Shown one piece after another: positions 10,133-64,000 of a DNA stretch of 64,000 bases. The notes under the pieces were generated by a model that was not told where the DNA came from, ran no database searches, and worked only from the letters and a program-made list of their open reading frames with translations. The stretch comes from Bugula neritina (taxonomy: Eukaryota; Animalia; Bryozoa). Position 1 is the stretch's first letter; each line of letters begins with the position of its first letter. The stretch covers positions 9,198,129 to 9,262,128 of the forward strand of contig OZ037769.1 of NCBI GenBank assembly GCA_964035545.1, given 5' to 3'. The position numbers were made by a program, and so were the translations under genes.

Positions 10133-10133
10133 C

Positions 10134-10657: not shown

Positions 10658-10708
10658 TTATTGCACTATTAATAGTTTCATGCCTCTTCGGCACTCCTCA
10701 GGTACAAT
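10658..10708 (-). ncRNA. Decayed type I hammerhead, family B, inverted in front of a Penelope RT fragment
   Basis: Minus strand: TATTGTAC-CTGAGGA-GTGCC GAAGA GGCAT-GAAA-CTATTAA-TA-GTGCAATA. A partial sister copy at ~32728-32780 retains CTA T TAG-TA. Confidence 0.6.
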
Positions 10709-10709
10709 A

Positions 10710-11124: not shown

Positions 11125-13155
<2,031 letters not shown>

Positions 13156-13561: not shown

Positions 13562-14239
13562 TGTGTGTGTGTGTATGTATATATACATATTATACATGCT
13601 AAATATTTATTACAAATTTCAAAAATAGCCTAAATTAAGTAGTATTATCGTGCCTATTTGCATCCAATTTACTAGCCTTACATTTATAGCAACTGTAACA
13701 TATTTTGTGCAAAATGGTTATTGCAAGCATTATCCAATTCATATTCACATTGTAATCACAGCGAAGCTTAAACTTTATAGCTTTGTATTTACGTGCATGA
13801 GTGAGTTTTCATTTTTCTTTTAATTTTATGTGCATTGAAAATGTGTTTAAAAACTTTACCACTAAACAAAACTAAAAAAATGTACACATAAAATAGAAAA
13901 AAAATAAAATAACAAAAGTGGCAAAATTTTTCCTTTATAACTTATATAAACTCGCGGTATCAATTTCGGCATAATGGCGAACATATGATTCTGTAAGATT
14001 TCCTAAAGTCAACACTCCTAATATGTATCACTCTGACGGAAATCAGAGTGGTATATATAAGAGTGTTGACTTTAAAGCATGAAAAGTCATTATGCCGCGA
14101 TAAGTACCGCGAGTTTATAAAAGTTATAAAGGAAAAGTTTTGCCACTTTTGTTATTTTATTGTTATTTTTATTTTATGTGTACATTGTTTAGTTTTGTTT
14201 ATTAATAAAGTTTTTAAACACCTTTACACGCATATAAAA

Positions 14240-17200
14240 CGTGGCGACAAACCCTGAAAAGGTGTGGGCAATAGAAGACTGAGTTACTCCCTAGGATTTG
14301 ATCGAACTCCGGGCGTTTCTGGGCCTGGTAGGGTGTTACCGGCAATACATACCAGACTTTGCGAGGATAACACGGTTGTTAAACTGGCTCACCGCAAAGG
14401 GGGTAGCCTGGCAGTGGTCTCCGGTCAAACAGCAAGCGTTCGACCGCCTCAAGGGTTGCCTGTTGACGGCGCCCGTCTTGGCGTACCCTATCCCACTCGG
14501 GAGTACATCCTGGACACGGACATCAGTGACCATAATATTGGCGCTGTGTTGTCACAGGTACAGAAAGGCCGAGAAGTAGTAGTAGCCTACTACAGCAAGT
14601 CTCTCTCACTCGCTGAAAGAAATTACTGCTTTACCCAAAAGTAACTGCTGGCAGTAATCAAATCAGTAAAACACTTCAGACCTCATTTGTACGGCAGGAA
14701 GTTCCAGCTGCGTACGAACCACGCCTCCTTGATTTGGTTGTGTGAGAGAGCAGAGCCGTTCATCCAAGTCGCCAGGTGGCTCAAAATCCTGGCCGAGTTT
14801 TCTTAGCGATCGAACACCGGCCGGGTAAGAAACACGGCAATGCGGATGGGTTGAGCCGGCGGCCAGACGCAGGATACAAGCAGTGTCTCGGGATTGAGAG
14901 GAGAGACGGAGGCCCCTCGCGATCCGTTTTAGAGACACGGGTTAACCAAGAAGCAGAGTATGACTGGAACCAGGGTCAACTCAAACCGGCAGTTGGCGAG
15001 GATTCGAAGGCGGTACAAGGCCTCCGTGTCAACCCTGTTTTGGCCGATAATGTCTCAGAGCTAAGGAAACTCCAGGAAAATCTCTCTGGGGTGGTAGCCG
15101 ACATGTACCGAGTTAGAAAAGAGAGGCGGCAACCCAGCGAGGAACAACTGAGGCAGGGGTGCGTCAAACTCTGACTATTCTGCCAGCATTGGGACTCGCT
15201 GGAGATTAGAGATGACGGGCTGCTGACTATCACACTAGCCACCAACGGCAGACACCCCGAGAAGAGGAGGGTGGTCTGTTCTGCAGCCATACGCCGGGAG
15301 TTGATTTAGGATACCTATGAACAGGCTCACGCCAGAGTCCAGAGGGTGATCACCAAACTGCAACTCCAGTGGTATTGGCTCAAGATGGGGCGTGGAGTGC
15401 GACTCAAAGGGAGACAGTGCAAAATCAGCCAGGCCAGTAAGCATGGCCATCTCCCTGGTGAAGCGGGAGGGCGGAGACTGTATGCTGGAGGGCCATGGCA
15501 AGTGGTAGCTGTTGATCTAGTCAGACCCATGCCTCTAACCCCCAGGGGCAACAGCTAGATCTTAGTATTGACCGGCCACTACACCAAGCGGGCCAACGCC
15601 CTGGCTATCCCAGACGCGTCGGCTCCGACCGTGGCCAGGGTGCTAGATCAAAATGTAATCTGCTATTTCGGCCTCCCGGAACAGATACATTCATACTGAG
15701 GCGCTCAGTTCCAGTCTTAGCTGATGAGCAACCTCTGCCGCCTTTGGGGAGTAAATCAAACCAGGACCACCTCTTACTATCCACAGGGTAACAGAGTGGT
15801 GGAGCGCAGCAACTGGATGCTAGGTGATACACTCCGGAGCCTGCTACTCGGCCGCAATCAGGAAGAATAGGATACAGTATTACCGCAAGTCATGCGTGCC
15901 TATCGTAGTGCCCCACACACCAGTACTGGTGAAACTATCAATCTCCTGATACTAGGTCGAGAGACTCAGGTGACCGAACACCTTACCTACCATGTTTTTG
16001 AGCAAGATAATTCGTTCCACGAGTATGCCAGCAAACTGGTGGAGCGGATGAAAGCCACACACGAAATGCTGCGGGAGAAGCAGTGGTAGGTGCAGCGTGA
16101 AGACTCAGAGGAGCCACCCATTTACCTAGTGGAAGACTGGGTGTAGATGACCAATCACCGTAGGCGTGGCAGACAGGCGGCTAAATTACAGCCTAAGTTC
16201 ATTGGACTCTGCGTAGTAGTCAAGGCGATGCCCAACCATACTTACAAGATCGAGCGCTCAGGACAGGTGTCCATCCAGAATGAGGCTTGCTTGAAGCCAT
16301 ATTGGGTCAGTCCTGATGCAGTGGGAGGAGCCTCCCTTCCTCTCTCCTTGTTGTTAGAGCTCCGGAAGCAGACAGCAACGCACGAGCGGCAACGGCGTGG
16401 ACCAGAGTATGAGGTGGTCGTGCCGCTGAAGGAAGACCTGGCAAGAGACGAACAACCACTTTCCCCCGCAGAAGTGGGTTCGTCGCCTCTGACGCCAGGT
16501 CCAATACCATCACTTCTAGAGCCTGAGCTGGGCCCAAAAATGGAAAACCCCCACAAAGGGAGGGGCTCCATCCGGAGAATCTAGAGAAGAACTAGTCACT
16601 AATGAGTTGAAAGTCCCACCAGTGAAATTTGATAATCCACCGGTGAGTGCACCGCCTCCTCTGGAACGAGGACAGGATACCAGACAGCCCCTCTGCGTAC
16701 TTACAAGACTTCTTATGTGACTGCGTTCAAAGCGGCAAGTTTGTAAGTCCAGCAGGGTGCTATACTAAAAAACCATCAGTTAATTGTGGGAGTTGCACAC
16801 TCCTGAGAGAAAGTGAAAGTGGCTTATACTAGGGCCGAGTAATGGGCAGAAATAATCTGCGCGAGGCAAAAAGTCCCAGCCACGTGCAGCGAACATGCTG
16901 TTCAGCCTTTTCCTACGCTAACATTACTAAAAGCAGGCATGCTCTCCAATCCTCTACACAACAGACCTGAACGTTGAGTATGCTTAAAAATACCAAGTTT
17001 CAAGGTAAGCCTGCCTAGATCTAGTATTCCTATCTATGGGAACGGGTCTGTCATCAGTTAATTCTGATTTAATTGATTCAATTGAATCAAAGTTACTGGA
17101 GACTATGTGAACCGTGAATGATGAGGAAGATGTAGTAATGGCCGACGATCTTTTAGATCTGGAGCTGGACGCTATGATTCTTAGTCAGTCTACACGCTCG

Positions 17201-18450
17201 GCCCCTGTCTCTCGAGTGTCTTATAAAAAGATTGATGGCTCTCAGACTAACAAGAGTCAATTGTCATCAGAATTATATTGTAAAGATCAACTTCGATTTA
17301 ACAATAATTCTACTCCACAAACTATGTATTGCCACACGCCGTAGACGCTAAGACATGCTGGACGGCGCCAGAAACGGAACGTACAATACTCAGCCAACGA
17401 GGAGACACAAACAACATGATGTGCTACCTCTGCCAACAGCACTTCACCACCCCCCCCCCTCCGCAGGCTGCGGGTACATCTTTCTCAGCACTATATTACG
17501 ACATGTTGTCCCTGCAGAGAATGGAGCTATCATGGGGACTACATCCTCAGACACCAAAGGACTATGAACTGCTTTCCGGGTAATATTTATGATGTAGACA
17601 AAATCTCTTATCCTAGATTCTTGGAGCTAATACAGCCTTTCGTTTCCGACCCAAATCGATTAGAGAGACTATCACAACGGTTCCCAGCCCCCAGGCAAAT
17701 TACTCATGGCCCAGTCACCAAGCTTCCTAACTATCAGAAATTGGGTGCGGCATGACAAACTTCAAATTCCACCTCTCTTCTCAACTTTCTCTCTCGAGTT
17801 TTGCTAAAACGCTTAGAAACTCAGTCTTTTAGACAGCTACCGGCCAGACGTTCTCTTTCCCCGCTTCAGCCTCAAATCTACAAAAGACGGTGGAACTCCT
17901 CATCTTTTGCCCGGCGTCTGTCCCTGGCACAAAACCTGTGAGAGGTTGAACTTCGCACCAGTGAACTAGAGAGGGAAGTTCATCGGCTTGCCCCAAGAAT
18001 ATCAGCTGTGGCCAGTGAGTTACAGGCCCTCAAGGATTCGGTCGCAAGACTTAGACGGGCAGCCCAGGATGATGCCAGATAATCTCTCTCACCCTGGGCG
18101 ATGCTACTGGTCTGTGTGACCTTCTCTCCCTACCTCTTCCTTTACTGTCGTCTGTGTGACACCCTCTTCCGTCGTCTGTTGGTAACTATGGAACTCCATG
18201 TCTAGTCCCTATTACATAGTCTATGTTGATGATGGCGTCTGACAATTGACTTAGGCTATCAGCTAAATATTTAGTACTAATACTACGTAGTGATTCCAAA
18301 TATAAAAACAGCAAGGATTAGTGAAACTATGTGAGAGTTGAGTAGTGTGGAGCTTATTGGTATAGTTTTAGTGGTATGGAGTAATTTTGTTTATTAAGTT
18401 GCAGTTTTATTTGTTTAATGTAGAGAGCTTCGGCTACTTTTCGATGGTGG
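14240..18450 (+). mobile_element. Degenerate Gypsy element (RT end, RNase H, integrase, ORF3 remnant); related to 58005-64000
   Basis: Collinear similarity to the intact pol (YILDTD.SD, HRPGKKHGNADGLSR, WQVVAVDLV, KLQPKF) with many stops and frameshifts; ends near the PPT with no LTR. Confidence 0.9.
17340..18082 (+). pseudogene. Gypsy accessory ORF3 zinc-finger/coiled-coil gene (copy 2, disrupted)
   Basis: Across frames: CYLCQQHFTTP/RLRVHLSQHYITTCCPC..DYILRHQRTMNCFPGNIYDVD..FPAPRQIT and ELEREVHRLAPRISAVASELQAL. Confidence 0.8.
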
Positions 18451-18562: not shown

Positions 18563-18620
18563 TAATTACTTTGCCTAATAAAGTAATAAATCAACAATGT
18601 TTCTCGTGTGTATATATATA

Positions 18621-18890
18621 TTACGCTCTCATTTAATGCTCAGCAATGACATTAAATGATTGAGCACTCTCACCATGGTCACAAACTCAAGCTGCTAGCA
18701 TTTTGCAATGCTCGTGACTCCTAGGTGACCCCTAGAGTCACTTGAGCACTCTGGCTTGAGTTTACACACCTTTTAAATATGCTTTAGTAAAACTATAAGT
18801 TTTACTATTGCAAAGGTGTGGGCCATGGTACTCTGTTCTGTGCTGATGAGGGGACAAATCCCTAAACAGCTGCTGTCCACAGATTGAGAT
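18621..18890 (+). mobile_element. Monomeric copy of the ~272-bp family A retrozyme-like unit, flanked by (TA)n
   Basis: Reverse complement of 10134-10405; hammerhead core has GAAA changed to TAAA (predicted inactive). Confidence 0.8.
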
Positions 18891-19269
18891 ATATATATAT
18901 ATATATATCCACTGACAGTTGATCAGAAAGATGAGAGTATTAGAAAAGAAGAGGCAAGCTGAAGAGAGATACGAATATTTATAAATCACACAATCCCAGA
19001 ATGCCTGTTCCTGCAGCAACTTACACCAAGAATAAGGTAATCTATTAGAATTAATGCTATCTAATTACATGTAATATCATAAACGCTAAGCTAAGGGAGT
19101 AGTTAATTATTTTGGGTAGCCTATATTAAAATTACTTGAAATAGTTACAATAAAAGCATCAATGTCATTGTTTTATAGCATTATTACTAACTGCAGTTAG
19201 TAGTTTGACACTAGTACTTTATTTTAATATATGTGGCATTAGCTCGTCAGTATTTGGTGTTTTTCCACA

Positions 19270-23300: not shown

Positions 23301-26300
23301 ACATATAGTTAACCTAGTCGTCTACTACTCCGGTCAAGACTGCTGTGGGTGCCGGAAGGTATCACTTATATATGTAGAGTGGATCCTGATTGGATAAGCT
23401 AAGGTTCTATCGTTGTCATCGTAGAGTATAAGGGGGCGCCGCATGGGACTGCGGCATGGCTTGCAGAGTTGTCGTCTTTGACGATATTCGCACCATGTCA
23501 TGTTTAGCAGGGGACAGAGAAGGGTATACTTCCTTTAACCATTACAATATGTCACAACTTAAACTTTCAATTATATTGCTAAATTACTATTATGATTATC
23601 AGCAAGAAAAGTTGTTGGCCAAAGAACACTAGAGAAAGTGCAGTTAGGCAGTTAGATTGTAATTGTATGATTATAATACTAATACTAACTAATACTAATA
23701 CCAATAGCAATAGTAATAGAGTTGGTGATTTATCCGTGTTGACGTAACTCACCTCGAAAAAATTAGAACAGGCCCAAAATTATGAGTGCCTCTTATGTTG
23801 TTTTTGTTTGTGTTTATCATGTGTAGAAATGTATCTATTCTAGCATGTAGCTAAGTTTGGATATTTTAATTGTAATGTAAAGGGGTTTTAGCACATAGCT
23901 AAGCTGAGTTTGTGTTATGAGGTGGTATCTTCAATTCTCTGATTCTTCGAGGGAGAAAACTGTTGTGAAAGGTCTGTGAGGATACAGAAATTGATGTTGG
24001 TTCTCCTCTCTTAGCACATCGAGTGTTTATTGACCGATTTGATTTTAATAGTTCATCTTGAGCAGATGAAAGCGTTTTATGGCGCTCTTCATCTGAGAGT
24101 ATTCTCATTACCAAAGTTATTCTATGGTCTCTTCGTCGGCTCGCAAGAGTTGCAAGCTGCAATTCAGTTCGAGCGTCACTGATGCCATATCTTCCTTTGA
24201 GGTTAGCGATAAACCTAATAGCTTGATTTTGAATATGTTCAATTCCCTCACAAGCACTTTTGTTAGTCGAATTCCACAACGTGTCTGCATACTCAAGGAT
24301 AGGTTTACATAGACTAAGGTACGCAATTAATTTTGCCTTCCTGGGTGCGTTGTAGATTGTATGCTTGATACAGCCAAGTATTTTGCTTGCATTGTTGACT
24401 TTAGATGTAATATGTCTGTCAAACTTTAGGTTAGACTGCATGATTACTCCAAGATATTTAGCCTCTTTAACTGTTCTAAAAGTGGTGTCACCAAGTGAAT
24501 ATAGATGAGAAGTGTCATTAGTTTTACCAAATATAATCACTTCGCACTTATTGGTATTAAATGGCATTTTCCATTTAAGTTATCAGTTATAAAGTGAGTT
24601 TAGGTCTCTCTGACAGGCTTCCTGTTGTATTTTGTTGTTAACTTCAGCATATAGAAGTGTGTCGTCAGCATAGACTAACTTTGCATGAGACAAATTGAGG
24701 GAGATCATTGCTGTAAATTAGGAAGAGTGTTGGTCCAAGAACTGATCTTTGGGAGACTCCAGATGTTACACTTAGTTCAGATGATTCCGTCCCTTTGATC
24801 ACCACTTTTTGTATCCAATTGGCAATAAATGGGTAAATTCCTTTAATTCGCCTGATTTTCTCTATGAGTAGTAAATGAGGAACTTTATCGAAGGCATTTT
24901 TAAAATCTAGAATTACTACATGAGTAGTTGATGAGTTTTCGGCTGCTCTTGCAAGGTCATGAAAAGTTGCACACAATTGAGTGTCACACGAGAGGCAACG
25001 TCTGAACCCTTGTTGTCTATTAACCAAAATTGAATCTCGTGTTTTATTTAGATAGTGTAATATAATATGTTCTAGCATTTTGCAGCGGATACTTGTCAAA
25101 GAAATAGGTCGATAATTGCATGGCTTCTCTTTTTCACCTTTCTTATATATAGAAGTGATGTTGGCAGTCTTCCATGCACCTGGGAGCACACCTTGTTTTA
25201 TTGAAGCAGCGAAGATATGCTGAATCCACTCTGCATTGATATTAGGGTTTATTAGTAATTGGCATTTGCGGATCTGGTCTGGGCCAGGTGATTTATTATT
25301 AACAACAAGTCTTTCAACACTATCTAATGTGATGGGAAATGGTGCTGTTTGAGTTGAAAGAAGTGGGAGTTTTCATATACTTTCTTGGTGGCAGAACTGT
25401 GAGTGAAAGTATTTATTTAGTTCGTTGGTGATTATCTTACTGTCAGTGGTTGAAAGGCCATCCATAAGTGTCATAGTCTCTAAAGGATGCTGTTGATTTT
25501 GTTTGTACCAAAGATGTTTCTAAAAAGGTTTGCTGTTCCCTTTTTCCAATGGCTTACAAACTTCATATAGCAAATAATTCTTTTGAGCTTTTTGAGTTTT
25601 TTCTTGTTGTTCCGGTGGTGCTGCTTATATTTATTCAAGTAGTATGGATCTCCAGTTTGTTTGTATTTTCTGTGTGTAATGTGTTGCTTGTCTATCATTT
25701 TTTAATGTTTGTTAAACCAAGGTGGTTGATCTTCATTTCTGACATGTATAGTTTCGCGTGGAACAGAATCAAGTATGGCTTCATCAAGTGATCTTTTGTA
25801 AATATCCCACATTTTATGAACTTGAACGTGTGCCTTCTGATAGACAAAGATTTCCTCGGTATTTTTACATTTGTGTTGTTGGTGCATCATTGTTTCTACT
25901 TTAAGCTTCAGGATTATAATATAGTGATCGCTTAGGCCAAGGATTACCACATCTGAAAAATCTGTTGTAAGAGTGTTAGAGAGGCATATCAGATCAAGAG
26001 TGTTTTTGTGAATGTGTGTAGGTTCTGTAACCATCTAGTGTAAGTTATGTTCGTAAAGCATGTTGAGAAATTGTAGATGAATAGCTTTGTAGGATGAATT
26101 GGGTTTAATAGTTTTGGTAACTCAGTCTAGTCCAGGAAGATTCATATCACCAAGTAAAATGATGTTGCAGTTGGAATATTTATATTTGATGGAGCTAAGT
26201 ATGTTACTTATTTGTTTGATATTTGAAGTTGATGTCCTCGGTCTATAGTAACAGCATATAGCTAGGTTTGTTGGAATAAGGATAACTACTATTTCTTCAT

Positions 26301-28165
26301 TATAAGTTTTAACGAAAACTTTTCTAGCGTTAAGCTTTGCCTTGATTGCAATCATAGCTCCTCCTCCGTGTAAGTTTCTGTCATTTCTAAAGAAGTCTAA
26401 ACCAGGTGTTTCGATTACAATTTTGCTGAGAATAGATTGATCAATATGCGTTTCTGTTAGGCAGATCAAATCATAGTTTTTTAGTTAGTGCGGTGATTTC
26501 TGCTGTTTTTCCTTTGACTGGCTTGACATTAGCAAGAAAAAGATTTAGATCTGAGATTGTTTTGTTTGTTGGTCTTTCGGTTTCAACTTTTCCCAGTTTC
26601 CCGATTAAGCTTTTTTTGAATTTTGAAATCCCTGATTCGAAATTGTATGGTTGGCTGCTCCTCTTAAAGCTTTTTAACCTGTTGAGTGTACTCTTTTTCT
26701 CTGGTTTTTTTGTTCATGTCCAGCTTGCAGAACAAGGAATCTGAGCGCAAAGCATGATTTACCTGTTTTCAAAATTCCCACTTGAACCTTTTATCTCTAA
26801 ATCGCAATTTTGTAGGGTGATTTTTGTTTTCAGTCTTAGCACCAAGCCTAACTGCTTGAACTGACTTGTTGAATTTCTTAAATAGTTCTTTGGGCATTAA
26901 ATTATTCACATCTTGCATTGCAGTATCTCTTTCAGTTGGGCCATACAAAATTGCATTGGATTTCCTCGCTCCGTTGTACTTTTTGTCCATCTTCGATGCA
27001 AGTAGTGCTTGGCTGGTTGTGGTCATTTGCAGGGTTTTTTTTGTGTTATTCGCAATTTCAATGTTTTTGCTGGTAATATCAGCCCAGGTTTTTTGGAGGG
27101 TACTGATTTCTTCATTGTTGTGTTGATGGTATTTTTCTAACTTTTTCTCAAGTTTAGAAATTTGTTGATTAATGCTGTGAAGCATTTTCATATGTTGTGT
27201 ATTGCCACCATCATCTTTTTGAGAGGAACACTCATCACAAAACCACCTAACACCTCTGTCCGACAGTCTAGTGATGGAATTCACCTCAGATAGTTGGAGG
27301 CCTTAGCATGTTCCATGGTACCATTATAGGCACACAGCCCAAGATATCCATTTTGAAGCAGCTTTTTGTTGTTTTCCGCCTTTAGTGAGAAGAAAACATT
27401 CTTTCTTGGAGCATGATGCACATAACTCATTAGGGTCTGTATTGTTGTCATCTGTAATAGATTCCAACTGAGAGCATTGCAGAGGGGGAAAGTCACCTCC
27501 ACTATGACCAATTTGGTCTTGAGACTGAGTGGGTGTGAGGAGTGACATACCTATACTTATACTATTTAATTCAAAGTGATACACCAAAACTATCAAGTGT
27601 TAAGGCTATCAATGACCAAGCTAGGCACTATCAATATCACTATGAGTATGACTATAATTACAAATTTAAACTTGATGCTAAAATAATACTTAAAGATTTG
27701 TAGTTAAGCTATGTAGGCGTAAGCAGAGTGTCTAATTTCAGGTATTTTTATTCTTTAGTTCAAGATGAATTTACACAATAACTTTAATTTAAAGCTCGGT
27801 TGTTTAAAAATTTAAATTTAGCATCCGCCATGACCTTACATTACGTATCTGATACTATGATACCGTTATTATTTAAAAAAAAGAATACTTTTACACTAAT
27901 ACTAATAGTAATACAGTCATTGAACATTGAATTATTTTTATCTTACTTGATGAAATCAAACAATATGAATATGATTGAAGTATTGGCTGTATTGCCTACC
28001 GTCTAGAGATTGGCCTGAAATTTTTACCCATTCATTAGCAATATCTGCCCAGTTGTTTCTTTTTGTTGTGGCTGCATCCCTGTAGTCTGGATGAGATAAA
28101 TCATACAAACATGGTCGACTTCTAACCAACCCAATAAACAAATTTGTCAAATCTTCTTTCGCCAT
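20330..28165 (-). CDS. Harbinger accessory MADF (Myb/SANT-like) protein, 248 aa; exons 28165-28000, 21042-20874, 20741-20330
   Basis: LFIGLVRSRPCLYDLSHPDYRD..NNWADIA / KWSLLRDSFVR..STGA..WKYYDNMQWF / RTNL..BESS-like C-terminal helix. GT-AG junctions are in phase (166+169+412 nt) with no stops. Convergent with the transposase, as is typical of Harbingers. Confidence 0.8.
21241..23546 (-). mobile_element. Gag-only non-autonomous LTR retrotransposon (LTRs 23546-23112 and 21685-21241)
   Basis: Two diverged ~440-bp TG..CA LTRs, ATAT TSD, PBS TGGTGGCAGCGGTGGGAT, PPT AGAGGGGGGA, degenerate gag (KAPIFTGNEDVEQFIQE; knuckle SWECGSPEHLRKEC); no pol motifs found. Confidence 0.85.
23093..23110 (-). promoter_or_regulatory. 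Primer binding site, probably tRNA-Leu
   Basis: TGGTGGCAGCGGTGGGAT, 1 nt after the 5' LTR end; resembles the complement of eukaryotic tRNA-Leu 3' ends (from memory, not checked). Confidence 0.7.
23870..27730 (-). mobile_element. Near full-length degenerate CR1/L2-group LINE (ORF1 with PHD finger; ORF2 APE endonuclease and RT)
   Basis: ORF1: ELCASC..AVCL*WYHGTC..WFCDEC, coiled coil, NAILYG. EN: ICLTETH, RNDRNLHGGG, LGDMNLP, TLDL, SDH. RT: DFKNAFDKVPH, GVSQRSVLGPTLFL, MPFNTNKC. Confidence 0.9.
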
Positions 28166-32723: not shown

Positions 32724-32773
32724 AAGAAAAGAGCAATTTATTTATATAGATGTTTTATTGCGCTACTAATAGT

Positions 32774-32852
<79 letters not shown>

Positions 32853-32853
<1 letters not shown>

Positions 32854-33123
32854 CTCAATCTGTGGACAGCAGCTGTTTCGGGATTTGTCCCCTTATCAGC
32901 ACAGAACAGAGTACCATGGCCCACATCTTCGCAATAGCAGAAGCTTATAGTTTTACTAAAGCATATTTAAAAGGTGTGTAAACCCAAGCCAGAGCGCTCA
33001 AGTGACTCTAGGGGTCACCTAGGAGTCACAAGCATTGCTAAATGCTAGCAGCTTGAGTTTGTGACCATGGTGAGAGTGCTCAATCACTTAATGTCATTGC
33101 TGAGCATTAAATGAGAGCATAAT
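32853..33123 (-). mobile_element. Monomeric family A retrozyme-like unit between (TA)n tracts
   Basis: High similarity to 10134-10405; core CTGATGA changed to CTGATAA (predicted inactive). Confidence 0.8.
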
Positions 33124-33124
33124 A

Positions 33125-33191
<67 letters not shown>

Positions 33192-34747
33192 CTCTATGGT
33201 TAGAAAAGCTACAGTGTTAACACTCCTGTTTCTGTAAATTTTGAAACTGCTGAGAAATAAAAATGGTTGTTAATTATTATATGGAAATTTATAATATAAC
33301 TTTGGTGGCATGAAAATTGTAGACTTGCACATGCTAAATTCTAAAACACGGAGAGCCATTCATGACATGCCATCTCTGTAGCATATCTTCTTTATACAAT
33401 TTGAATATGAATTGTTTCTATAAAAAAAACTGTAAAATTTCTGCCCAATTTCTTGAGATATAATGTTGTACTCAAACAAAACTCTAAATCTATCCTATAA
33501 GGAAAAAGTTATATTGGTGAAGAACCAAATTAAAGTTTGCGACATTTACTAATGGAGCTTATTGAGCAATTTGTGTTAGCATTTTTAAAAAACTATAATC
33601 AAATTAGTTTTGAGAATTAAAACCACTTAAAAATTGTATAATAAAAGTAGTCAAAGCTGTTGTGTAAAGTTATTGTTTCTTCAATATAAAAATATAATTC
33701 CTAATAAGCTAATTGCAAGTTAAATATGCAATTGTTTCAACAAAGTTAAAATATTTTGTGTTAAATTTTACAACTATACTCAGTGGGAACTTATATTTCT
33801 TTATTTGAATAGGAAAACTTGTTTTTGCAGCTAACAACCCAAATTAAAAGTCAGTCATACTGACATGTGCGTCAAAGCAGCTCATATTAGCACTAACAAA
33901 GTCTCATGGGTGAACAATAATTATTGCACATTTGTACAGTTCCTATATTAGCACTATTGTTACAATTAAAAAATAATTTATTCTTATATCGGTATAGAGT
34001 AGAGGTGCATATTTTAATAAAAAGTTTGAATTTATTAAATTAATATGGAAAAACTGCGAGCATGTGGTAATCAAATAGGAGTTGTAATTCCTTTTCAGTA
34101 AAAATGTCTTGAAATTTCAACAAAATGTGAGTACCTACATGTCCTTCACAGCCAAAGCATGGCAGCTTATTTATGCAAAATACAAACCAATCATTTGAAG
34201 CTAAGATTGTTGTTAGGACAGCAGTCTAAAATTCCACCACAGATAGATAAATTTTAGTAAACCAAAATGTAATTATTTGAATTTGTTAAGTCACAGAAAC
34301 TTAATTGATACTTTCTATTGTTCAAAGAATAGTATATACTTTTTTTTCAAATCTTTCTCTGGAAGATTAAGTATTGAAGCTCTTTAAAACTGAAGGCAAC
34401 AATGCCAACAGTTGATATGTGCATTACACTGAGCTGTTGGTAATGTAGGAAATGTTCCCTGCACTGATGTTTTTATTTGGTTATTGTTATATAATATAAT
34501 ATGGTAAAGTAAGGAATATTTCACTCCGTGGCTAATAATTTCCATTTATAATTTAAAAAGAGATTTTTTGCAACCTACATTTAGAAAATCAGCTCTTTAT
34601 TAACTAGGTAATAGTAAATAACTTGTTTACAAAAATTATATGATATTTTATGTACTGAGCACAAATATATAATTATACATGTAGCAATTAGCGATGATCA
34701 ATGTGGAAAGATATCTATTTTTATCTGCTACTTTACTAAAATTCATT

Positions 34748-38900: not shown

Positions 38901-39427
38901 TTCTATAGCTATAAGTATTAGTAAAAGTATATTTTATATTTATTAAAAATTTTCTTAGTGTTATCCACTGCTATAGATGCATATAATAATTATTATAAAT
39001 ATATGTTACAAGTGAAGTAGTTAAGTACCTCAGTAAATCTCAATCTCTTCTGCAAACTACCCTCTGAAAGTACTTGAATATTTAATATAAAAATATGTTT
39101 TCATTATTGTAGTAATTATTATTATGTGATAGTTGTCAAATTGCATTAAATTCCACTAATTATTTAAATTTATTTGTATATAAACCGCAACTTTATAGTT
39201 ATCGAGTTTATTATAGTTTGATTCATGTGGGATAATTACCACAGCTCCAGTGAAGCAATACCAGTGCATTGACTGCAGGAGTAATAAACAATCTGTATAA
39301 GGGTTGTAACTGCCATTTCAGTTGATTTTTTATCCAATTTTTTTCTAGATAGAAGTTGCAGAGGTCTAGTAACACTCTTTGAATAGCCAGAATTATTTAC
39401 TTCCTGCACATTCCAAACTAATTACAT

Positions 39428-50219
<10,792 letters not shown>

Positions 50220-51324: not shown

Positions 51325-54300
51325 TTACAATTGCAATGTTGTTACAGATTTCCCTTGCACGTACACTTCAAATTGAATGAGATCTTGTAACAACTGTCCC
51401 TCAGGTAGCACTGGAATATGGTGCTCTTGGCAATATCTCATAGCAACCTGCAGCAATAAACAAAATATTTACAACTCGTAGACACACACTTGACCTTTCT
51501 TTCCACATGGATGGTTTGTATGGTGACAAACAAAGTCAAACGTTCAGCAGCTGATCAACACTGTTGACTTCAAGTACAGTGCTTGTTGCATCATATCTTT
51601 TTGGCTAATTCATAAACTTGCACACTCCTTATCAACTGCAGTACTGTGAAATTACTAGATAAATCATATCCAGCTTAAACTGAAAAATAATTTCTTTCAG
51701 CATATTCAACAGCTGTGAAGAAAACATCATAGGTGGGGAAAGAAGGTGACCTACCCTGCCTTATAAAGTTGTTTATAGCTTCTGGAAATCAACAAACAAA
51801 TCTTGTGTAACAATAAGATACACCAAAGAGTCAGTAAATGAGAACTAATGGCAACTTCACCCTCTACTGGCACCAAGACTCTACTGGTGCCAAGAAAACT
51901 CTGTTAGTTTTATTGCTGCTCAGCAATAAAATAAGCAACAGATAATTTTGGAAGTTGGCCAACAATTGAATAAAGTAAAATGCAATTTCAGAGGTGTTTC
52001 TAGTGTTCAACATTGGAGAATATTCTTAAAAGATTGAGATCAACTGGCAACATTTCCATCTTTATACCAAATGTTTGTGTTGCTGGCTAACAATTATACT
52101 GCAAGTAACACTAGAAGTTTTGCACCTAATGCTACTTTTTTCTCCCCATCTCCGATTTCTCTTGTTCGGGTAGAGGGAAGCACTTAATGCTACTGTCATA
52201 ATAATACTAAGATGAGTCATAGGAGCTTGAAAATAAACAATAGAGACACAACTCACGAAGTAATGGCTACTTAGGTAATGCTTTCTATAGGCGTACATAA
52301 ATGAGCTCAACATGAATGAACCAAAAAGTTATTTTGCTTTATTGCTGCAAATATCGACCTAATGTACTGTTTTATAGTTTAAATAAAGAAAAGACATTTA
52401 CAATACCAGAGTTAAAGAAGACAACTCCATATTTACTATTGGTAAAATGTTCACACACTGCCATACCGTACGACATAAAAGTACAAACAAAATGGGGCCG
52501 CTGTTACGTTTTGTCAACAGGCGTTCACACACACTGACGTAAAAGTACAACGCATGACGTTGAGCTGTGACCAATCATAATAAGGCTAATTCTTGTCTGC
52601 GTGAACTTGTACACCTTAGGATATTGTTCACAAATTATTTTGCAACATTCTTTTCAAAAGATGTTATATAAATGCTATTGACTAAATAAAAGCAATTAAA
52701 AGGAAACAATCTCCTTTTTAAATATATGTGTCCTTAAAATAATTGTGCCAACTAATTTGAATAACATATTATATTTTAGCCGTCCAAATAATTGTGATTA
52801 GGGAAAGCTAGATTTTTAAGCTGAGTTTGATTTAAACAAGCCGGATAAAGATTTTTTAATCCTTTAAAACTTTTGAATTGGTTAAATTAAATCAACAATA
52901 AGCGATTAAAATAAACTAGCGAAAATGTTCTTTAAATTTTAGTACCAGATCAACTCTACCCAATGGGAGCCCTCCGTGATTTTTTTCATCAAGCACTGCT
53001 TGATCAACGCCACTACTTATTCAGCGATTCAGCCCGGGTGTTACTAAAGATGGCGGACATTTGCTGTTACAGTACGGCAATGTGTGAACAGGAGGTTAAA
53101 AGAACAGCTTCCACCAAACCTTTGAAATCTGACTGCAATCTCAAACAAGTCATCTCAAAACTGCGGTGAATTATACAAAGTTTCTATTAATCTGAAATAA
53201 ATATCTATACACTTTCTTGCTGAGCAAAATTTAAACCCATTTCAAATGAAATGAAAGACATAATATAATGAACCATAATTATACCATGGAGAAGTTTTCA
53301 GAGACTAAGGAGGCAAAGCCAGAATAGTGAAATCAAATCATCTGTCATTATTTGTAATGTTGGTCATAAATTAGTAAAAGGACAACTTCCTACCAGCAAA
53401 AGAGATAAAGAGATAAAACAACTCCAATAAGTTTAGATGGCAGGCAGTTTCTTACAGTTGAAACTGAAAATTACCTTTAGAGTGCATTTGGTTTTGACCA
53501 TCAAATACACAAGACAAACAGCGGCAGCACTGCTCAGTATGTCAGAGGAAGTGACAGCCACTGCATTATGTTGATCTACAATCAGTAGCAGATATATTAG
53601 AGACAGCCAGAGAAACATGGTGACACATACTAACATACTCTTGTTGACATGGTGATACATACTAACATATTCTTGTTGACATGGTGACACATACTAACAT
53701 ATTCTTGTTGACATGGTGACACATACTGGCATACTCTTGTTTACATGGTGACACATACTGACATACTCTTGTCGACATGGTGACACATACTGACATATTC
53801 TTGTTTACATGGTGACACATACTAACATATTCTTGTTGACATGGTGACACATACTGACATATTCTTGTTTACATGGTGACACATACCAACATACTCTTGT
53901 TTACATGGTGATACATACTAACATATTCTTGTTGACATGGTGACACATATTCACAAAACCAAACATAAATTACAAGGTCTATTCATACATGTATATATAC
54001 AATTGATATAGTAGGGTAGTTTTTAATAATAATGTTAATAGAATGGCAAAATTACTATCAAAAATAAAAAGATAAATCATTTTGATGCATCATAACCAGT
54101 TTATTTCATAAATATGTTATCTTGTGTCTGTCTCCTATTTACACTTTAATAATCACTTCAAAATGTTGTAGTCGACTTTATTTTTAATTCTCGAAATTGT
54201 AATCATATAATTGTTTTCATTGCACAGGCAATTGCAGCAAATTGATATTTATGCCAAAAATGTTAAAATTCTTTTGGTAAGCAAACACTGGGCATTAGAG

Positions 54301-56990: not shown

Positions 56991-58633
56991 TATGGCTCCA
57001 GCTTGCTCAGGTGCAAATCTAAGCTGAAATTGACAATGTAAACATTACTACACCAAGTAAAAAGTGTCGTAGAATTGCGTACATCCTAGTAACTTTGCAC
57101 AAATTATCTTTATTTTTTGCTTTTGTATGATACAATTGCGTACTTTTATTCCTAATAGCTATGTGTGTTTTCCTCTTTATTTCGTTATAATGGCATGTTC
57201 TAGAACTGATTAGGGCAATGCAAATCCACACATATAAAAGGAGGCGCACAGCCCAGAGTAGTCAGTGAGGAGCTGACACTGGATAAGACCACTTCTACCA
57301 GCTATCACGATATAGTTATATTATCCATATATATAACTACTTTTACTACTTATGTGAGAAGTTACCTGCTCAAACCTCTAAAAAAACAAGTTGTAATGCT
57401 GCAGTGTGTTGATTAGTAGTGGTGAATTAAACTTGATAATTATTTTTGCTCGTTCACTAGTTCAATTAAATAATTTAGAATGTTTCAATTGCACTTGCAT
57501 ATATGTAGTTGGTGTGAGTGTCACTATTAAATTTAATTGTTATACACATTTGTAATTCATCAGAATGAAAAATATTACTATTATTATTATTACTATTTAA
57601 TCATCAAAGATCTAATAAAACACAAATCTCACACCAGTAAAACTAAAACTAAACAGCTATTGATAGTCATTGTTTATGTTATCTTGTATTTAATTTTATA
57701 ATATTTCGGGTTAGTTCAGGTTGCTTCTAAAATGTTAAATTGAAATCATCTTATAACTGTAACTTATAGTTATACTTATAGCTATAGCTTAGGATTTATA
57801 ATATAAGTCCTAAGATCAAATATAAGTATAAACTTAAAGTTACTGTTCTACTTATATTTATAGCATAATTATAAGATTAGGTATAACTTAAACTTAAACT
57901 ATAACTATAAGGATAAGTCATAGTGATAACTGCATTGAAGCTCAAAGTTATACTGATGATGATACTAGGCCTATAAGTATAAGTATAATATTTACTTTTA
58001 CTATTGTAGTAATTTGTGCAATTACCGTGCGTGAGTTCCTAGCTTGTAATTATAGTCTATTTATCCACATCAATAAAGTATTTAAATAAGATTCAACGAG
58101 ATTTATTTACTACTAAGTATAATAAGAGATACAAAAAGTACGCAGATTAAAAACACTACATCTTTACTCTTTTAGTACGCTCTCTCTACTACTTTCTACA
58201 TCGCTGGGGGTTATCACATGACGCACTCTTATTGGCTAAAGGGCTTGGGGGGACGCGCGTATTACGTACTCACTACACCGCCCCCCCCAGCAGAAAGCCC
58301 TACTTTCTGATAACACAGATACAGTTAATACTAAGACACAAAAAACGTTACAAAAAAAACTATAAAACTGAGAGAGCGTATGGCACATAAAAGAAAGAAC
58401 ATGACTATGTACAACAATAAAAAAATAGAAAAATATAACAGTAAAACACACTATGACACTGACGGGAGAGGCACTTATAAGTGAACAGTCCATAGAGTTA
58501 GAGATGTATACTTGTAGGTTACTATAGGATTGTCACACTGAGGAATTGTTCGTTAGCACCGGGCATGAGAGGGGTTCGAGATGGGGCACCACCTGCGGTA
58601 CCATCACGGGTAGGGAGTTTGGGGATGTCGTCT

Positions 58634-59407
58634 TCAAGCGCTTCCTTTCATTCGGGCTACAGAGGCAGAGAGGGCCCGGAGTTCAGATGCGGCGGCAGAG
58701 ATTCTCGGTGTCAGCCTTTGCACTTCTTTCTCTAGTTCTCGTATCCGTTCTTCTGCTTCTCCTAGGTTCCGGGCGGGGGCAGAGTGCCGGTTGGGAGACG
58801 AAGATGGCCAACGCCGTTTGCGAGAAGGCCTTGGGGAGACGGGGGGAGAGGGACGCCATCGCTGTGGTACTTCGATGCGTCGTAGCACGACTTTGGGTAT
58901 GGAGTCGGGGCGGGGCACTGTGCGTGCGGGGGGTGATGGACGGGGTACGCGCGGTCTCCTATATCCGGGTGGTTTAGGGCAGGGTCCTTGTGTGATGGCC
59001 CTGGGTGCGGGGAACTCCTGACGCAGCCGTTCATAGCGAGTCGGGTCTGATATAAATGGTCGGATGAGATCAAGGAATTGTGGGAAGGAGGGTTCGTCGA
59101 CTTCGAAAAGATGTCCAACATGGCATCCCATGGTCCGCTGGTGACGGAGGATGTAGTCCCTGTGGTAACTATATTCACCACAGGGACAAAAGGTGGTGAA
59201 ATAATGTTGGGGAACGTGAACTCGAAGTCTTCGTGGGGTGGTGAAGTGAAGCTGGCATAAACGGCAGGTGGTGCATTGGTCATCGCCCTTGTATTCTCGA
59301 ATAAGTGCTTCTGTGTCTGAGGTAACCCAGCATGACTGGTGTAAGAGTGCTTCCGGAAGTGTAGTGGGAACAGGTTCCTCGTTCCAAGCCATTTTCAATG
59401 ACGGCAT
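58634..59407 (-). CDS. Gypsy accessory ORF3: C2H2 + C2HC zinc-finger, Pro/Arg-rich linker, coiled coil (copy 3, open)
   Basis: CRLC-x12-HVPQH, CPC-x12-H-x5-C; C-terminal EAEERIRELEKEVQRL..ELRALSASVARM; in-frame acceptor CTTTTAG at ~59435. Confidence 0.8.
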   Translation of the reverse strand: MPSLKMAWNEEPVPTTLPEALLHQSCWVTSDTEALIREYKGDDQCTTCRLCQLHFTTPRRLRVHVPQHYFTTFCPCGEYSYHRDYILRHQRTMGCHVGHLFEVDEPSFPQFLDLIRPFISDPTRYERLRQEFPAPRAITQGPCPKPPGYRRPRVPRPSPPARTVPRPDSIPKVVLRRIEVPQRWRPSPPVSPRPSRKRRWPSSSPNRHSAPARNLGEAEERIRELEKEVQRLTPRISAAASELRALSASVARMKGSA

Positions 59408-59785
59408 GTCACAAGGAAGAGGAGAGAGTGGTATCTAAAAGAGCAGAATTACTGTTAGATCGAGTGTGATCTTTACACCATAATTCTGATGACAACCGAC
59501 TGTTACTAGTCTGAGAGTCATACATCTTTTTAGATGGCACTCAAGAGACTGAGTCGTGTCGTGTAGACTGACAGAGAGACATAGTGTCAAGCTCCAGATC
59601 TAGTAGATCGTCGGCCATTGTTATGTTCTCGTCGCCTTTCACGTAGGACTCAGTCTCCAGTAGTCGTGATTCAATCAGGGCGATTAAATCAGAACTGACT
59701 GATGGTAGACTTGCTTCCATGAGTGGAAATGTTAGGTCAGAGCAAGCTTACCTGAGAACCCGGTATTTGTAATCATACTCAGCGT

Positions 59786-62700
59786 TCAAGCTTGGATGTC
59801 CGTGGATTGAGTTTGGATGCGTCTGCCCTTGACAACGTCAGCGTAGGAAAAGACTGGGCAGCGTGGTTGTTGCGCACGGCTAGAACTATTTGCCCCGGGC
59901 GTAGTAGTTTTGTTTACTACTCCGCCTTCGCAAAAGTTGAGATTTCCGTGGTGTTCACAACTCCCACGCTTTGTTGCCAGTCCTTCCGTACGGCGCCCAG
60001 CTGGACTTTCGTAACTGCCGTTTGTAACACGGTCACATACGAAGTCTTTCAGGTATGCTGGGGGTTGTCTAGTACGCTGGCCCCGTTCCAGGGGAGGTGA
60101 CGTATTAGCTGGAGAGGGGGGTGTAGTTGTTGGTCGGGGCGGTGTACTCACTGGTGGGCTATTTTGCTCCACTTGTGGTGTTTCTGGCCCGCCGTTGGTG
60201 ATGGCATTTCCCTCTCCGCTGTTGTCTCCGGATGGAGCCCCTCCCACGGGGGGGTTTTGCACTTCCGGACGCGGATGCGGATCCGGAAGTGGTGGGGGTA
60301 GACTTGGTACTGGGGGCGGTGGGCGCACTTCCGTTGATGGGAGTGGCGTTTCCTGCCTTACCAAGTCCTCCTCCCGCGGCACAACCACTTCGTATTCTGG
60401 TCCATGCCGTTGCCGCCCGCGCGTTGCTGTCTGCCTCCTGGGCTCCAACAACGGGGGGGCTGCTCCTGCTGCTCCTGGGCTAGCCCAATACGGTTTCAAG
60501 CGGGCTTCATTCTGGACAGAGACCTGTCCAGATCGCTCCAGCTTGTACGTATGATTGGGCATCGCCTCAACTACTACGTAGGGTCCCACAAACTTAGGCT
60601 GGAGCTTAGCCGCTTGTCCTCGACGCCTACGGTAGTTGATCATCCACACCCAGTCCCCAGTTTGATAGAGGGGTGGTTCCTGAGAGTCCTCCTGCCGTAC
60701 CTGCCACTGCTTTGCCCGCAGTATTTCGTGTGCGGCCCTCAGGTCCTCTATCAATTTACTGGCATACTCGTGGATAGTATAGTCTTGCTCTGGGATGTGG
60801 TATGTGAGGTGGTCAGGCACTCGCGTCTCTCGACCAAGCATCAGGAGGTTAGGGGTTTCCCCCGTACTGGTGTGTGGTGTACTACGGTAGGCCCGCATGA
60901 CTTGCGGTAGTACCGTATCCCATTCCTCCTGACCCCGGCCGAGGAGCAGACTGCGCAGTGCATCGCCCAGCATGCGGTTGTTGCGTTCTACCACCCCGTT
61001 GCCCTGAGGATGGTATGGGGTGGTCCTGCTTTGGTTTACTCCCCAGAGGCGGCAGAGGTCGCTCAACAGTTGAGACTGGAATTGAGCCCCCTGATCCGAA
61101 TGTATCTGCTCGGGTAGTCCGAGGTAGCAGAATACATTTTGGTCTAGCACTCTGGCCACCGTCGGGGCGGACGCATCTGGAATAGCCAGGGCGTCCGCCC
61201 ACCGTGTAAAGTGGTCGGTTAATACTAGTATCCAACTGTTTCCTCTGGGGGTGACGGGCATGGGTCCGACTAGGTCGACAGCTACCACCTGCCATGGCCT
61301 CCCAGCATATAGCCTACGCCGTCCCGCTTCGCCAGGGAGACGGCCATGCTTGCTGGCCTGGCAGATTTCGCATTGTTTGACTCTACGCCGTACCTCACGC
61401 TCCATGCCGGGCCAGTACCACCGGAGCTGTAACTTGGAGAGCACCCTGCTTACCCCGGCGTGGGCCTGTTTGTGGGTGTCCCATACTAACTCCCGGCGTA
61501 TGGCGGCTGGGCAGATCACCCTCTTTCTTCCGTACTGGCTGTTGTAGGCGGCCACTGTGATGGTCAGCAGACCATCTGGCCCGATCCGCAGGGAGTCCCA
61601 ACGTTGGCAGTACGACCGTAACTCGGTGCATCCCTGCCGCAGCTGTTCTTCACTGGGTCGTCGCCCCTCCTTTTTGGCTCGATATACGTCGGCTACTACT
61701 CCGGGGAGGTCCTCCTGGAGTCTTCGTAGCTCCCTGACGTTATCAGCCAAGACAGGATTGGCACGGAGACGTTGGATAGCCTCCGGGGGCGTAGTGGCCT
61801 TCTGTAGGAGTTGACCCTGGTCCCAGTCATACTCCGTTTCAGGGTGGTTCAATGCCCTCAACTCGGATTTTGGGGGACCTCCATCCCTCTTCTCGATGTT
61901 GAGGCACTGTTTACACCCCTCGTCCGGTCGCCGGCTCAGTCCATCAGCATTGCCGTGTTTCTTACCGGGCCGATGCTCGATCCGGTAAGAGAACTCGGCC
62001 AGGACTTCGAGCCATCTGGCGACTTGGCTGGACGGTTCTGCTCTCTTGCATAACCAAATCAAGGAGGCGTGGTCGGTCCGCAAGCGGAACTTCCTGCCGT
62101 ATAGATAGGGTCTGAAATGCTTCACCGACTTGATTACTGCCAGCAGTTCCTTTCGGGTAGTGCAGTAATTTCGTTCAGTGGGTGAGAGAGACTTACTGTA
62201 GTAGGCCACGACCACTTCGCGGCCCTCCTGCACCTGGGACAGCACAGCGCCGACATTTTGGTCACTGGCGTCGGTATCTAGGATATACTCCAGGGCAGGG
62301 TCTGGATAGGCTAAGATAGGGGCCTCTAGCAGGCGGCCCTTGAGGCAGTCGAACGCTCTTTGTTCGACGGGAGTCCACTGCCAGGTCACCCCCTTTGCGG
62401 TGAGCCGATTTAACGGCTGCGCTACCCCCGCAAAGTCTGGTATGTATTGCCTGTAATACCCTACCAGCCCCAGGAAGGCCCGTAGTCCGGTCAAATCCTG
62501 GGGGGTTACCCAATCTTCTATAGCTCGTACCTTTTCAGGATCCGTCGCCAAACCGTGACGGCCGACGACGTGCCCCAGGTACTTCACCTCTGGCTGCAAG
62601 AGAGCGCACTTGGAGGGTTTGAGCTTCAGATTGGCACCTCGGAGTCGATTGAAGACCTCCCGCAGACGGCTGATGTGTGTTTGAAAGTCTGGGGAGATCA

Positions 62701-64000
62701 CGATGACGTCGTCGAGGTATACCAGCAGTGTCTTCCAGTGGAGTCCACTGAGGCCCTGTTCCATGAGCCTCTGGAATGTGGCGGGGGCAGAAGTCAGTCC
62801 AAAGGGGAGGACTTTCCACTTCCATAAGCCGTCCCGCGTGATGAATGCCGCCTTCTCCTGGGCGTCGGGGCTGAGGGGGACCTGCCAGTAGCCGCTCAAC
62901 AAGTCTAACGTACTGAAGTACTTGCTGCCGGCCAAGGCGTCCAGAGATTCGTCGATCCTGGGTAAGGGGTAGGCGTCCTGTATGGTCACGCTATTGAGCT
63001 TGCGATAATCCACACAGAACCGCCAACTGCCGTCTTTCTTTCGGACCAGGACGACCGGCGAGCTCCACGCACTATGTGCTGGCTCGATGAGGCCGCGGTC
63101 CAAAAGATCCCGGACTTGTTGGCTGACCTCCTTTTCCTTCTCGGGTCCCAGCCTCCTAGTGGGCTGTCGAATAGGGGTAGTCCCTGCAGCTAGCGGTATC
63201 TCATGACGGACGGCCGTGGTCAGGCCGACGTCATGGTCCCCGCTGCTGAACACGTCGCTATAATCACGTAGCAACTGAGCCATGGCCTGGCGTTCCACGT
63301 TGCCCGTGCAGCCGTCGCACGCTGCCTGGTATAGCTCTTTGACGTGTGGTGGGACGGTCCCCCGCCTAACTGACGGGCTCTGTTGGGGACCTTCCGTCGC
63401 AGCTCCCAGCGACGGCCCTATATCTTCCTCCTGGATGGAGTGGAAGCGGCCCAGCATGGATCCTGACGGTAATTGTACCGCTTCGGAGAAGGGGTTGACA
63501 CACTGCACCAAGATCTCTCCTCGGTCAGTCAGCCGGTTGAGACTGCTGGCGAGTTGGATTCTTGTGTGCGCACCTTCGACAACCCCTAACCCCGAGAGTT
63601 GGCTATTGTTCACTCTGCAGTGAACGGTAGCCCGGGAGCGGCCGGGTATAGTACAGTTCCGTACTACCTGCACGCCTCCCGCTAGGGGACGACCGAACTT
63701 GTCGACACAGGCGAGCTCCCTGCCGCCCATTAGCATGGCTGACTTGCTAAAGTCAATACGGCACCCGTGTCTCTTCAAGAACGGCATCCCCAGTATAGCA
63801 TCCTCTTCAAGTTGGCTGATGACGAAGGTTTCCTGGATGGCCTGGTCGCGGATGCGCCCAGTCAGCTCTATGATACCGTAGAAAGGAATCCGTGACCCGT
63901 CAGCTAGGGTGCCCGGTTCCCCGGTATAGGGAGCTAAGGCTCCCCTCTCCCTAGGGGGGAGGGTGTCAAAGACCCGACGGCTGAGGAGATTAGTGGTACA
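59786..64000 (-). CDS. Gypsy Pol (protease-RT-RNase H-integrase), frame open to the window edge
   Basis: Upstream in-frame CTTNLLS..LADGS..DAILGMPFL (protease); RT LDLLSGYWQ, LPFGL, YLDD; RNase H DTDAS; integrase H-H-C-C, DLVGP, DQG, ERNNR, GPY. Confidence 0.95.
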   Translation of the reverse strand, partial: CTTNLLSRRVFDTLPPRERGALAPYTGEPGTLADGSRIPFYGIIELTGRIRDQAIQETFVISQLEEDAILGMPFLKRHGCRIDFSKSAMLMGGRELACVDKFGRPLAGGVQVVRNCTIPGRSRATVHCRVNNSQLSGLGVVEGAHTRIQLASSLNRLTDRGEILVQCVNPFSEAVQLPSGSMLGRFHSIQEEDIGPSLGAATEGPQQSPSVRRGTVPPHVKELYQAACDGCTGNVERQAMAQLLRDYSDVFSSGDHDVGLTTAVRHEIPLAAGTTPIRQPTRRLGPEKEKEVSQQVRDLLDRGLIEPAHSAWSSPVVLVRKKDGSWRFCVDYRKLNSVTIQDAYPLPRIDESLDALAGSKYFSTLDLLSGYWQVPLSPDAQEKAAFITRDGLWKWKVLPFGLTSAPATFQRLMEQGLSGLHWKTLLVYLDDVIVISPDFQTHISRLREVFNRLRGANLKLKPSKCALLQPEVKYLGHVVGRHGLATDPEKVRAIEDWVTPQDLTGLRAFLGLVGYYRQYIPDFAGVAQPLNRLTAKGVTWQWTPVEQRAFDCLKGRLLEAPILAYPDPALEYILDTDASDQNVGAVLSQVQEGREVVVAYYSKSLSPTERNYCTTRKELLAVIKSVKHFRPYLYGRKFRLRTDHASLIWLCKRAEPSSQVARWLEVLAEFSYRIEHRPGKKHGNADGLSRRPDEGCKQCLNIEKRDGGPPKSELRALNHPETEYDWDQGQLLQKATTPPEAIQRLRANPVLADNVRELRRLQEDLPGVVADVYRAKKEGRRPSEEQLRQGCTELRSYCQRWDSLRIGPDGLLTITVAAYNSQYGRKRVICPAAIRRELVWDTHKQAHAGVSRVLSKLQLRWYWPGMEREVRRRVKQCEICQASKHGRLPGEAGRRRLYAGRPWQVVAVDLVGPMPVTPRGNSWILVLTDHFTRWADALAIPDASAPTVARVLDQNVFCYLGLPEQIHSDQGAQFQSQLLSDLCRLWGVNQSRTTPYHPQGNGVVERNNRMLGDALRSLLLGRGQEEWDTVLPQVMRAYRSTPHTSTGETPNLLMLGRETRVPDHLTYHIPEQDYTIHEYASKLIEDLRAAHEILRAKQWQVRQEDSQEPPLYQTGDWVWMINYRRRRGQAAKLQPKFVGPYVVVEAMPNHTYKLERSGQVSVQNEARLKPYWASPGAAGAAPPLLEPRRQTATRGRQRHGPEYEVVVPREEDLVRQETPLPSTEVRPPPPVPSLPPPLPDPHPRPEVQNPPVGGAPSGDNSGEGNAITNGGPETPQVEQNSPPVSTPPRPTTTPPSPANTSPPLERGQRTRQPPAYLKDFVCDRVTNGSYESPAGRRTEGLATKRGSCEHHGNLNFCEGGVVNKTTTPGANSSSRAQQPRCPVFSYADVVKGRRIQTQSTDIQA

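Follow-up and report, generated by a model that had tools for sequence, protein, structure and literature searches.

A tandem zinc-finger gene behind pol in a Ty3/Gypsy lineage of the bryozoan Bugula neritina

Do long terminal repeat (LTR) retrotransposons carry transcriptional or RNA regulators of their own, as complex retroviruses do? The non-Env accessory genes of these elements in animals are barely known, and CERV, discussed below, is the characterised case that was found. The question is made testable, by ordinary assays, through a 64,000-nucleotide stretch of the Bugula neritina genome (contig OZ037769.1, positions 9,198,129 to 9,262,128 of the forward strand; hereafter the window), in which a Ty3/Gypsy element has, behind pol, a third open reading frame (ORF3) with two tandem zinc-finger motifs. 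ORF3 belongs to an accessory zinc-finger module of one Gypsy clade that is real, under selection and apparently undescribed. The family is deep and under selection, its fold is predicted with confidence, and it comes either as a separate gene or as the tail of Pol, alongside a candidate element for RNA control and derivatives among host genes.

The element and its third frame

Copy A of the element lies at the end of the window, and comprises the following features.

59786 to 64000, minus strand: pol of copy A, open and extending past the window edge, with its stop TGA at 59788-59786
59430 to 59790, minus strand: structured RNA spacer separating the pol stop from the ORF3 core, with ATGs at 59776 and 59720
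58634 to 59434, minus strand: open part of ORF3, 266 codons, or 257 amino acids counted from the ATG at 59407
59000 to 59338, minus strand: conserved core domain, with W-helix, finger 1 (C2H2), finger 2 (CxC-x12-H-x5-C), EVD strand and helical hairpin
58637 to 58771, minus strand: C-terminal long helix, residues 215-256, a predicted coiled coil
58005 to 58277, minus strand: probable 3' LTR, 273 bp, TGTAGT...ACTACA, with CCAAT and AATAAA inside

Copy A is classed as a Ty3/Gypsy LTR retrotransposon by its predicted Pol domains, which run in the order reverse transcriptase (RT), RNase H and integrase, followed by a Tf2-1-like SH3 region and a proline-rich tail; in the relative P0246 a protease (PR) precedes RT, RNase H and integrase. 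The LTR evidence consists of the probable 3' LTR and a G-rich polypurine tract ahead of it, the 5' LTR falling beyond the window. A single-copy flank contig terminates at 58034, within the probable 3' LTR.

A reading of the sequence alone (the sequence-only reading) had placed a third frame in the env position behind pol, on the same strand, and the 266-codon frame is found there after the pol end at 59786. Its span had been given as 58634-59785, of which only 58634-59434 is open. Relatives reach about 360 amino acids, starting at a Met equivalent to 59720 (the start motif of this form begins 29 of 93 proteins from one homologue search), and by comparison with them 59435-59720 is broken, the N-terminal extension of copy A carrying an in-frame stop (59541-59543) and a frameshift near 59421. 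The core and the coiled coil are intact despite this upstream break.

The tandem zinc-finger motif that had been claimed lies, as CxxC-x12-HxxxH-x5-CxC-x12-H-x5-C, at 59266-59123, and the claimed block after it reads FEVD...FLDLIRP...DPTRYERL...FPAPR, followed by a Pro/Arg linker and the C-terminal helix. The intact ligand motif occurs twice in the window and in none of 100 shuffled windows. Near-complete conservation of the metal ligands, also claimed, holds for seven of them, which are invariant in 30 diverse members, and fails for the eighth, which is Cys at +5 in 93 of 177 motif-bearing proteins and Cys or His at other spacings elsewhere. Finger 1 (C-x2-C-x12-H-x3-H) is a canonical C2H2 finger with weak PDB and Pfam matches; Pfam C2H2 models weakly match 8-9 of 30 members, and a Pfam scan of P0001 gave no match. 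The fingers are joined by a five-residue non-canonical linker, and TGEKP-type linkers are absent. Compared with the tandem C2H2 domains of Kaiso/ZBTB33, ZBTB24 and SALL, finger 1 is alike, whereas finger 2 of ORF3 is of the CxC type and its last ligand varies. A classical C2H2 array with repeated canonical fingers was considered and set aside on account of the short linker, the CxC second finger and the variable last ligand.

The core domain, of 110 residues, holds both fingers plus extra helices, and is modelled by AlphaFold as a compact domain with a predicted local distance difference test (pLDDT) score of 95-98; folded without an alignment, the core reaches a pLDDT of 39. In the model, the two fingers superpose at about 3 Å on DNA-bound pairs (Kaiso/ZBTB33, ZBTB24, SALL), and a conserved basic helix is presented by finger 1; the protein would probably bind zinc. 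Structural matches were generic C2H2 pairs only. Foldseek returned nothing at E 0.001 or better among PDB or viral models, the core alone lying outside that search; a wider search by fold returned mostly coiled coils, and an Atlas look-up gave only unnamed or generic C2H2 clusters. These blanks do not amount to a new fold. The predicted lack of a transmembrane segment was borne out, with 19-residue hydropathy above 1.6 in 1 of 69 dereplicated relatives and a maximum of 0.96 in P0001. This low hydropathy, together with the zinc-finger/helix model, speaks against an Env protein of the errantivirus F-type or of the gB-type; as to a signal peptide, the evidence is that hydropathy scan.

Selection and distribution of the family

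Two further copies of ORF3 occur in the window.

14205 to 18082, plus strand: copy C, with decayed pol (14205-16958), the structured spacer seen in A (16965-17325) and decayed ORF3 carrying stops and frameshifts
11385 to 12350, plus strand: copy B, with an open ORF3 from a distant subfamily and its first ATG at 11496
11200 to 11480, plus strand: long stem-loop just upstream of ORF B and overlapping its start, z -6.5

Copy C shares with copy A the gene order of pol then ORF3, and the decayed homologue expected near 17340-18082 was confirmed as its frameshifted ORF3 (52% identity over 205 amino acids at 17329-18064, with a related region from about 17040). Copy B has 35% identity to the ORF3 of copy A over 233 amino acids, and its core is 85% identical to P0107. 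The expectation of a third-gene homologue at 11.4 kb was right as to an open and divergent frame; its position behind pol was not seen, no pol lying upstream of copy B in the window, and its place in an element is presumed.

The claim that ORF3 is maintained by selection is supported by the comparison of A with C, in which the core shows purifying selection with a ratio of nonsynonymous to synonymous divergence (dN/dS) of 0.12 (109 codons; dS near saturation), far below the value of 1 that had been named as telling against it. For pol the ratio is 0.14-0.18 and for the linker 0.54, and wrong frames give 1.5-1.7; divergence of A from B is saturated for dN/dS. Linkers diverge rapidly while the core stays fixed. 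Variants from related copies in public contigs (40 of 655 listed) point the same way: third positions account for 13 of 16 ORF3 variant sites (p 1e-4) and for 12 of 32 listed variants in the N-terminal extension, a clear contrast (Fisher p 0.006) between sites that are mutually non-independent. The dS of the core between A and C (regions 59000-59380 vs 17350-17700) is 2.4, about three times that of pol (0.74-0.84), and the spacer is lowest. The high core value may reflect exchange of ORF3 between subfamilies, or may be saturation noise.

About 150 divergent relatives of the core were collected; P0122, P0137 and P0196 were dropped as repetitive false matches. P0246 is a single 2091-amino-acid frame of PR, RT, RNase H, integrase, linker, fingers and helix, with about 450 low-complexity residues between the tail of the integrase SH3 region and the zinc-finger domain, and locus L002 is a near-complete element (gag-like frame and pol) in which the domain follows integrase in frame. 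P0170/P0234 and P0189 have a protease fused in frame with the domain and lack RT and integrase; these three are candidate non-autonomous elements. The view of ORF3 as a third gene applies to the separate frame of A and C, and elsewhere the domain is often the C-terminus of Pol instead.

Among 81 Gypsy loci retrieved by a pol scan, the domain is carried by one, L002. A, P0246 and L002 fall in one 7-row RT clade (Shimodaira-Hasegawa-like approximate likelihood ratio test 95) of a quick tree that holds no named references for Mag/C, CsRN1, MolGy or PolGy; the other four rows end at or shortly after pol and are unscorable for the domain. Outside the clade, the domain is found in 0 of 32 loci with at least 1.5 kb behind integrase, many of them close kin; for L010, the distance was counted from an integrase fragment that stands apart. 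Because of this joint placement and the blank outside it, the domain looks like a clade trait that alternates between Pol tail and separate gene. Another clade member, L003, has at 5471-6527 a roughly 300-residue Pol tail ending 26 nt before the contig end. Integrases of chromoviruses carry a C-terminal chromodomain; an extra domain at the C-terminus of Pol is common to them and the fused forms, whereas the ORF3 domain has a different fold and, in A and C, a separate frame, and no chromodomain was found on the pol of A, P0246, L002 or L003. DNA scans with the ORF3 core gave 164 pattern matches in metagenome contigs and 94 in viral contigs, none of them confirmed, and an integrase scan of the viral contigs gave nothing. 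A further profile search of proteins yielded almost no new relatives, and among proteins longer than 576 amino acids the follow-up search added neither a named one nor a Pol fusion.

Named sources were obtained for 5 of 30 clusters looked up, all of them bryozoan (Watersipora subatra and Bugula neritina). The annotated genes with the domain reject a single clade (approximately unbiased, AU, test, p 2.75e-5), and P0255, a Bugula gene model, stands beside copy B (98/95), nested within the A/B subfamily, in an unrooted tree of 117 columns and 35 rows picked from 87 in which many forks are unresolved. Among bryozoan gene models, two or more distinct lineages carry the domain. Domestication on several occasions is the simpler interpretation, and some of the models may be element copies. 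P0243, P0247 and P0177 (Bugula and Watersipora models) have in common the motif GYTG..LYH..T.....W, which lies N-terminal to the zinc-finger domain and has no Pfam match, and they likely represent a conserved bryozoan host gene family. Retroelements would then be a source, beyond a target, of host zinc-finger genes.

The spacer between pol and ORF3

The spacer is conserved at the nucleotide rather than the protein level (A vs C: dS 0.45, dN/dS 0.55), and it folds with z values of -5.0 in A and -2.8 in C. Between A and C, both sides have changed in 6 of 103 predicted pairs, and a confident pair is broken by 6 of the 40 listed variants against 13.7 expected. The conservation of the N-terminal extension, for which a duplicated RNase H end had also been considered, is explained by this RNA structure. 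Caution against over-reading it comes from the other windows: z is -3 or lower in 11 of 76 for element A, in 4 of 53 for C and in 2 of 20 for the surroundings of B. The RNA model of A and C does not detect the stem-loop of B, and the structured spacer matched no Rfam family.

A spliced message is predicted for the A/C subfamily. The sequence AG/GTAAG is unique in 5.7 kb of sense strand, where it occurs in the spacer only, and gives a predicted donor after 59752, lying 25 nt behind an ATG that A and C both retain. A predicted branch point, a pyrimidine tract and a YAG acceptor ending at 59435 complete the putative intron, and stems span the predicted donor and branch point. The predicted join is in phase in the relatives' frame, and the frameshift of copy A falls between the acceptor and the core. 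In 53 relatives, the residues across the YAG are always L/S/V/I then D/A/E/G, as a fixed YAG permits, a pattern that is suggestive only of a conserved acceptor. P0255 and its metagenomic twin P0112 part at a similar point just before the core. Among the contig joints listed (15 of 84, plus one further joint), none falls at the predicted intron. Reinitiation at ATG 59720 is an alternative to splicing. In L002, a site resembling an acceptor where the core begins was dismissed by eye, as its use would cut conserved residues.

Candidate functions and other features of the window

Along the protein, acidic, zinc-finger, basic and coiled-coil parts follow one another, and this predicted layout matches that of a dimeric transcription factor. 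It is proposed tentatively, at somewhat less than even confidence, that the ORF3 product is a nuclear regulator encoded by the element, and that it most likely transactivates the element's own LTR. Briefly, DNA would be bound by the two fingers, which in the model are packed into a single compact domain whose first helix is basic; the basic linker would direct the protein to the nucleus, dimers would form through the coiled coil, and the acidic-hydrophobic N-terminal region might recruit coactivators as in Tas of foamy viruses; the nuclear dimer would then switch on transcription from the element's own LTR. In the A/C subfamily, the hairpins that separate pol from the core would govern the message for the protein, whether spliced or reinitiated; sister lineages would release the protein from Pol. 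Of the regulator that the sequence-only reading had proposed, a conserved, selected, non-Env gene of one lineage with a fitting layout was found; its nuclear location, dimerisation, nucleic-acid binding and role are what we infer from that layout.

Foamy-virus Bel1/Tas is nuclear, encoded near the 3' end, and acts on its own promoters through an acidic activation region (PMC517496), properties that for ORF3 we only infer. The composition of the acidic region and predicted nuclear signal fits a Tas/Tax-like trait, a fit limited by the weak selection on the A-subfamily extension. Tas differs in coming from an env-bearing retrovirus and in having a C-terminal acidic domain, and no homology to ORF3 was detected, so that the likeness is one of layout. 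CERV of Cer1, a Ty3/Gypsy element of C. elegans, is described as made from a spliced mRNA and required for genomic RNA export; it has its N-terminus in common with Gag, contains a G-protein-like domain and a putative C4 loop, and lacks obvious homologues outside Caenorhabditis (PMC10309623), whereas in the ORF3 family ββα fingers in tandem go with a coiled coil at the C-terminus, and some forms are fused to Pol. The suspected regulators among additional 3' ORFs of plants and fungi (Grande gene23, Retand, Boty) are antisense according to the main text of PMC7264820, in which 'zinc' is absent, while ORF3 is sense and animal. The word occurs 0 times in the main text of two annelid LTR surveys (PMC8220671, PMC8556966), as does 'zinc finger' in the available text of a survey of metazoan env-carrying Gypsy elements (PMC13524379). 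A prior characterisation, which would have spoken against the earlier claim, did not come up in full-text literature searches; survey supplements, Repbase, Dfam or GyDB may hold an unnoticed annotation.

Several other roles have to be weighed against transactivation. An integration or nuclear-import tether, which would travel with the integration complex and grip chromatin or the element's cDNA in the slot of a chromodomain, attached by fusion to integrase or via the coiled coil, is rather unlikely. It would account for the in-frame fusion at the Pol end in P0246 and L002, for the basic helix conserved across unrelated LTRs, and for the ATG of the predicted small exon, which in A and C is in the pol frame 9 nt behind the pol stop, as if fusion-derived; the start of P0224, which we take to resemble an integrase tail, belongs on the same side. 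It is less easily squared with the stop conserved between pol and the domain in A and C, the retention of the domain in proteins without integrase, the low-complexity stretch of P0246 and the lack of a chromodomain on the examined pol proteins. It is unlikely, too, that ORF3 encodes a Rev- or CERV-like factor that binds the spacer RNA and exports intron-containing genomic RNA or sets the splicing ratio. Although the env slot is common to ORF3 and CERV (PMC10309623), and the folded RNA of A, C and the region upstream of B, the two-sided pair changes, the sparing of pairs by variants and the stems over the predicted donor and branch point would all suit such a factor, patterns resembling export signals (a crude measure) are not enriched (9 of 35 vs 10.4 expected), neither CERV nor Rev gave a sequence match (with no direct comparison against CERV itself), the structure at B is unmatched by the A/C model, and similarly low z values recur in the 11 windows of element A.

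Counter-silencing, in which the protein would bind host silencers or compete for the sites of zinc-finger repressors with the acidic region as a decoy, is quite improbable: no known anti-silencing or enzyme domain was found, and the high core dS that could signal ORF3 exchange may be saturation noise, even if fast-diverging linkers around a fixed core and the presence of host-annotated copies are what such a conflict might leave. The idea that ORF3 is a passively captured host zinc-finger exon, useless to the element, is largely refuted and retains very little probability. The domain does occur in annotated Bugula and Watersipora genes, with P0255 near copy B; however, it is under purifying selection between element copies, it occurs in three members of one RT clade that are distant from each other, the annotated genes are not one clade, P0255 is nested in the A/B subfamily, and no single close host donor, the origin that would have undercut the earlier proposal, appeared. 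Beyond transactivation itself, a wider picture is possible, if doubtful: a deep invertebrate Gypsy clade organised like an env-less complex retrovirus, whose own transcription factor, a zinc-finger protein from an undescribed family, is expressed by RNA-structure-controlled splicing or as a Pol tail and has been domesticated several times in bryozoans.

Elsewhere in the window, short frames on the plus strand at 39422-39829 and about 43500-43624 are presumably Nemo-like kinase exons (no Pfam match), in which case the introns of a host gene would be long and filled with repeats. A plus-strand fragment at 10676-11122 with YRDDGL, immediately ahead of copy B, is RT-like and, we assume, Penelope-like (no Pfam match). 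Gag/protease fragments of another LTR element, together with RT and ORF1-like fragments of a long interspersed nuclear element, are present at 1638-2752 (plus), 23899-25372 (minus) and 26769-27302 (minus). A small repeat family at 9898-10634, 18611-18908 and 32764-33197, with inverted arms around (TA)n and copies 93-98% alike, is possibly a miniature inverted-repeat transposable element. Minisatellites with 40-, 22- and 32-nt units at 42745-43581, 44455-45800 and 53551-54030 produce long spurious open frames.
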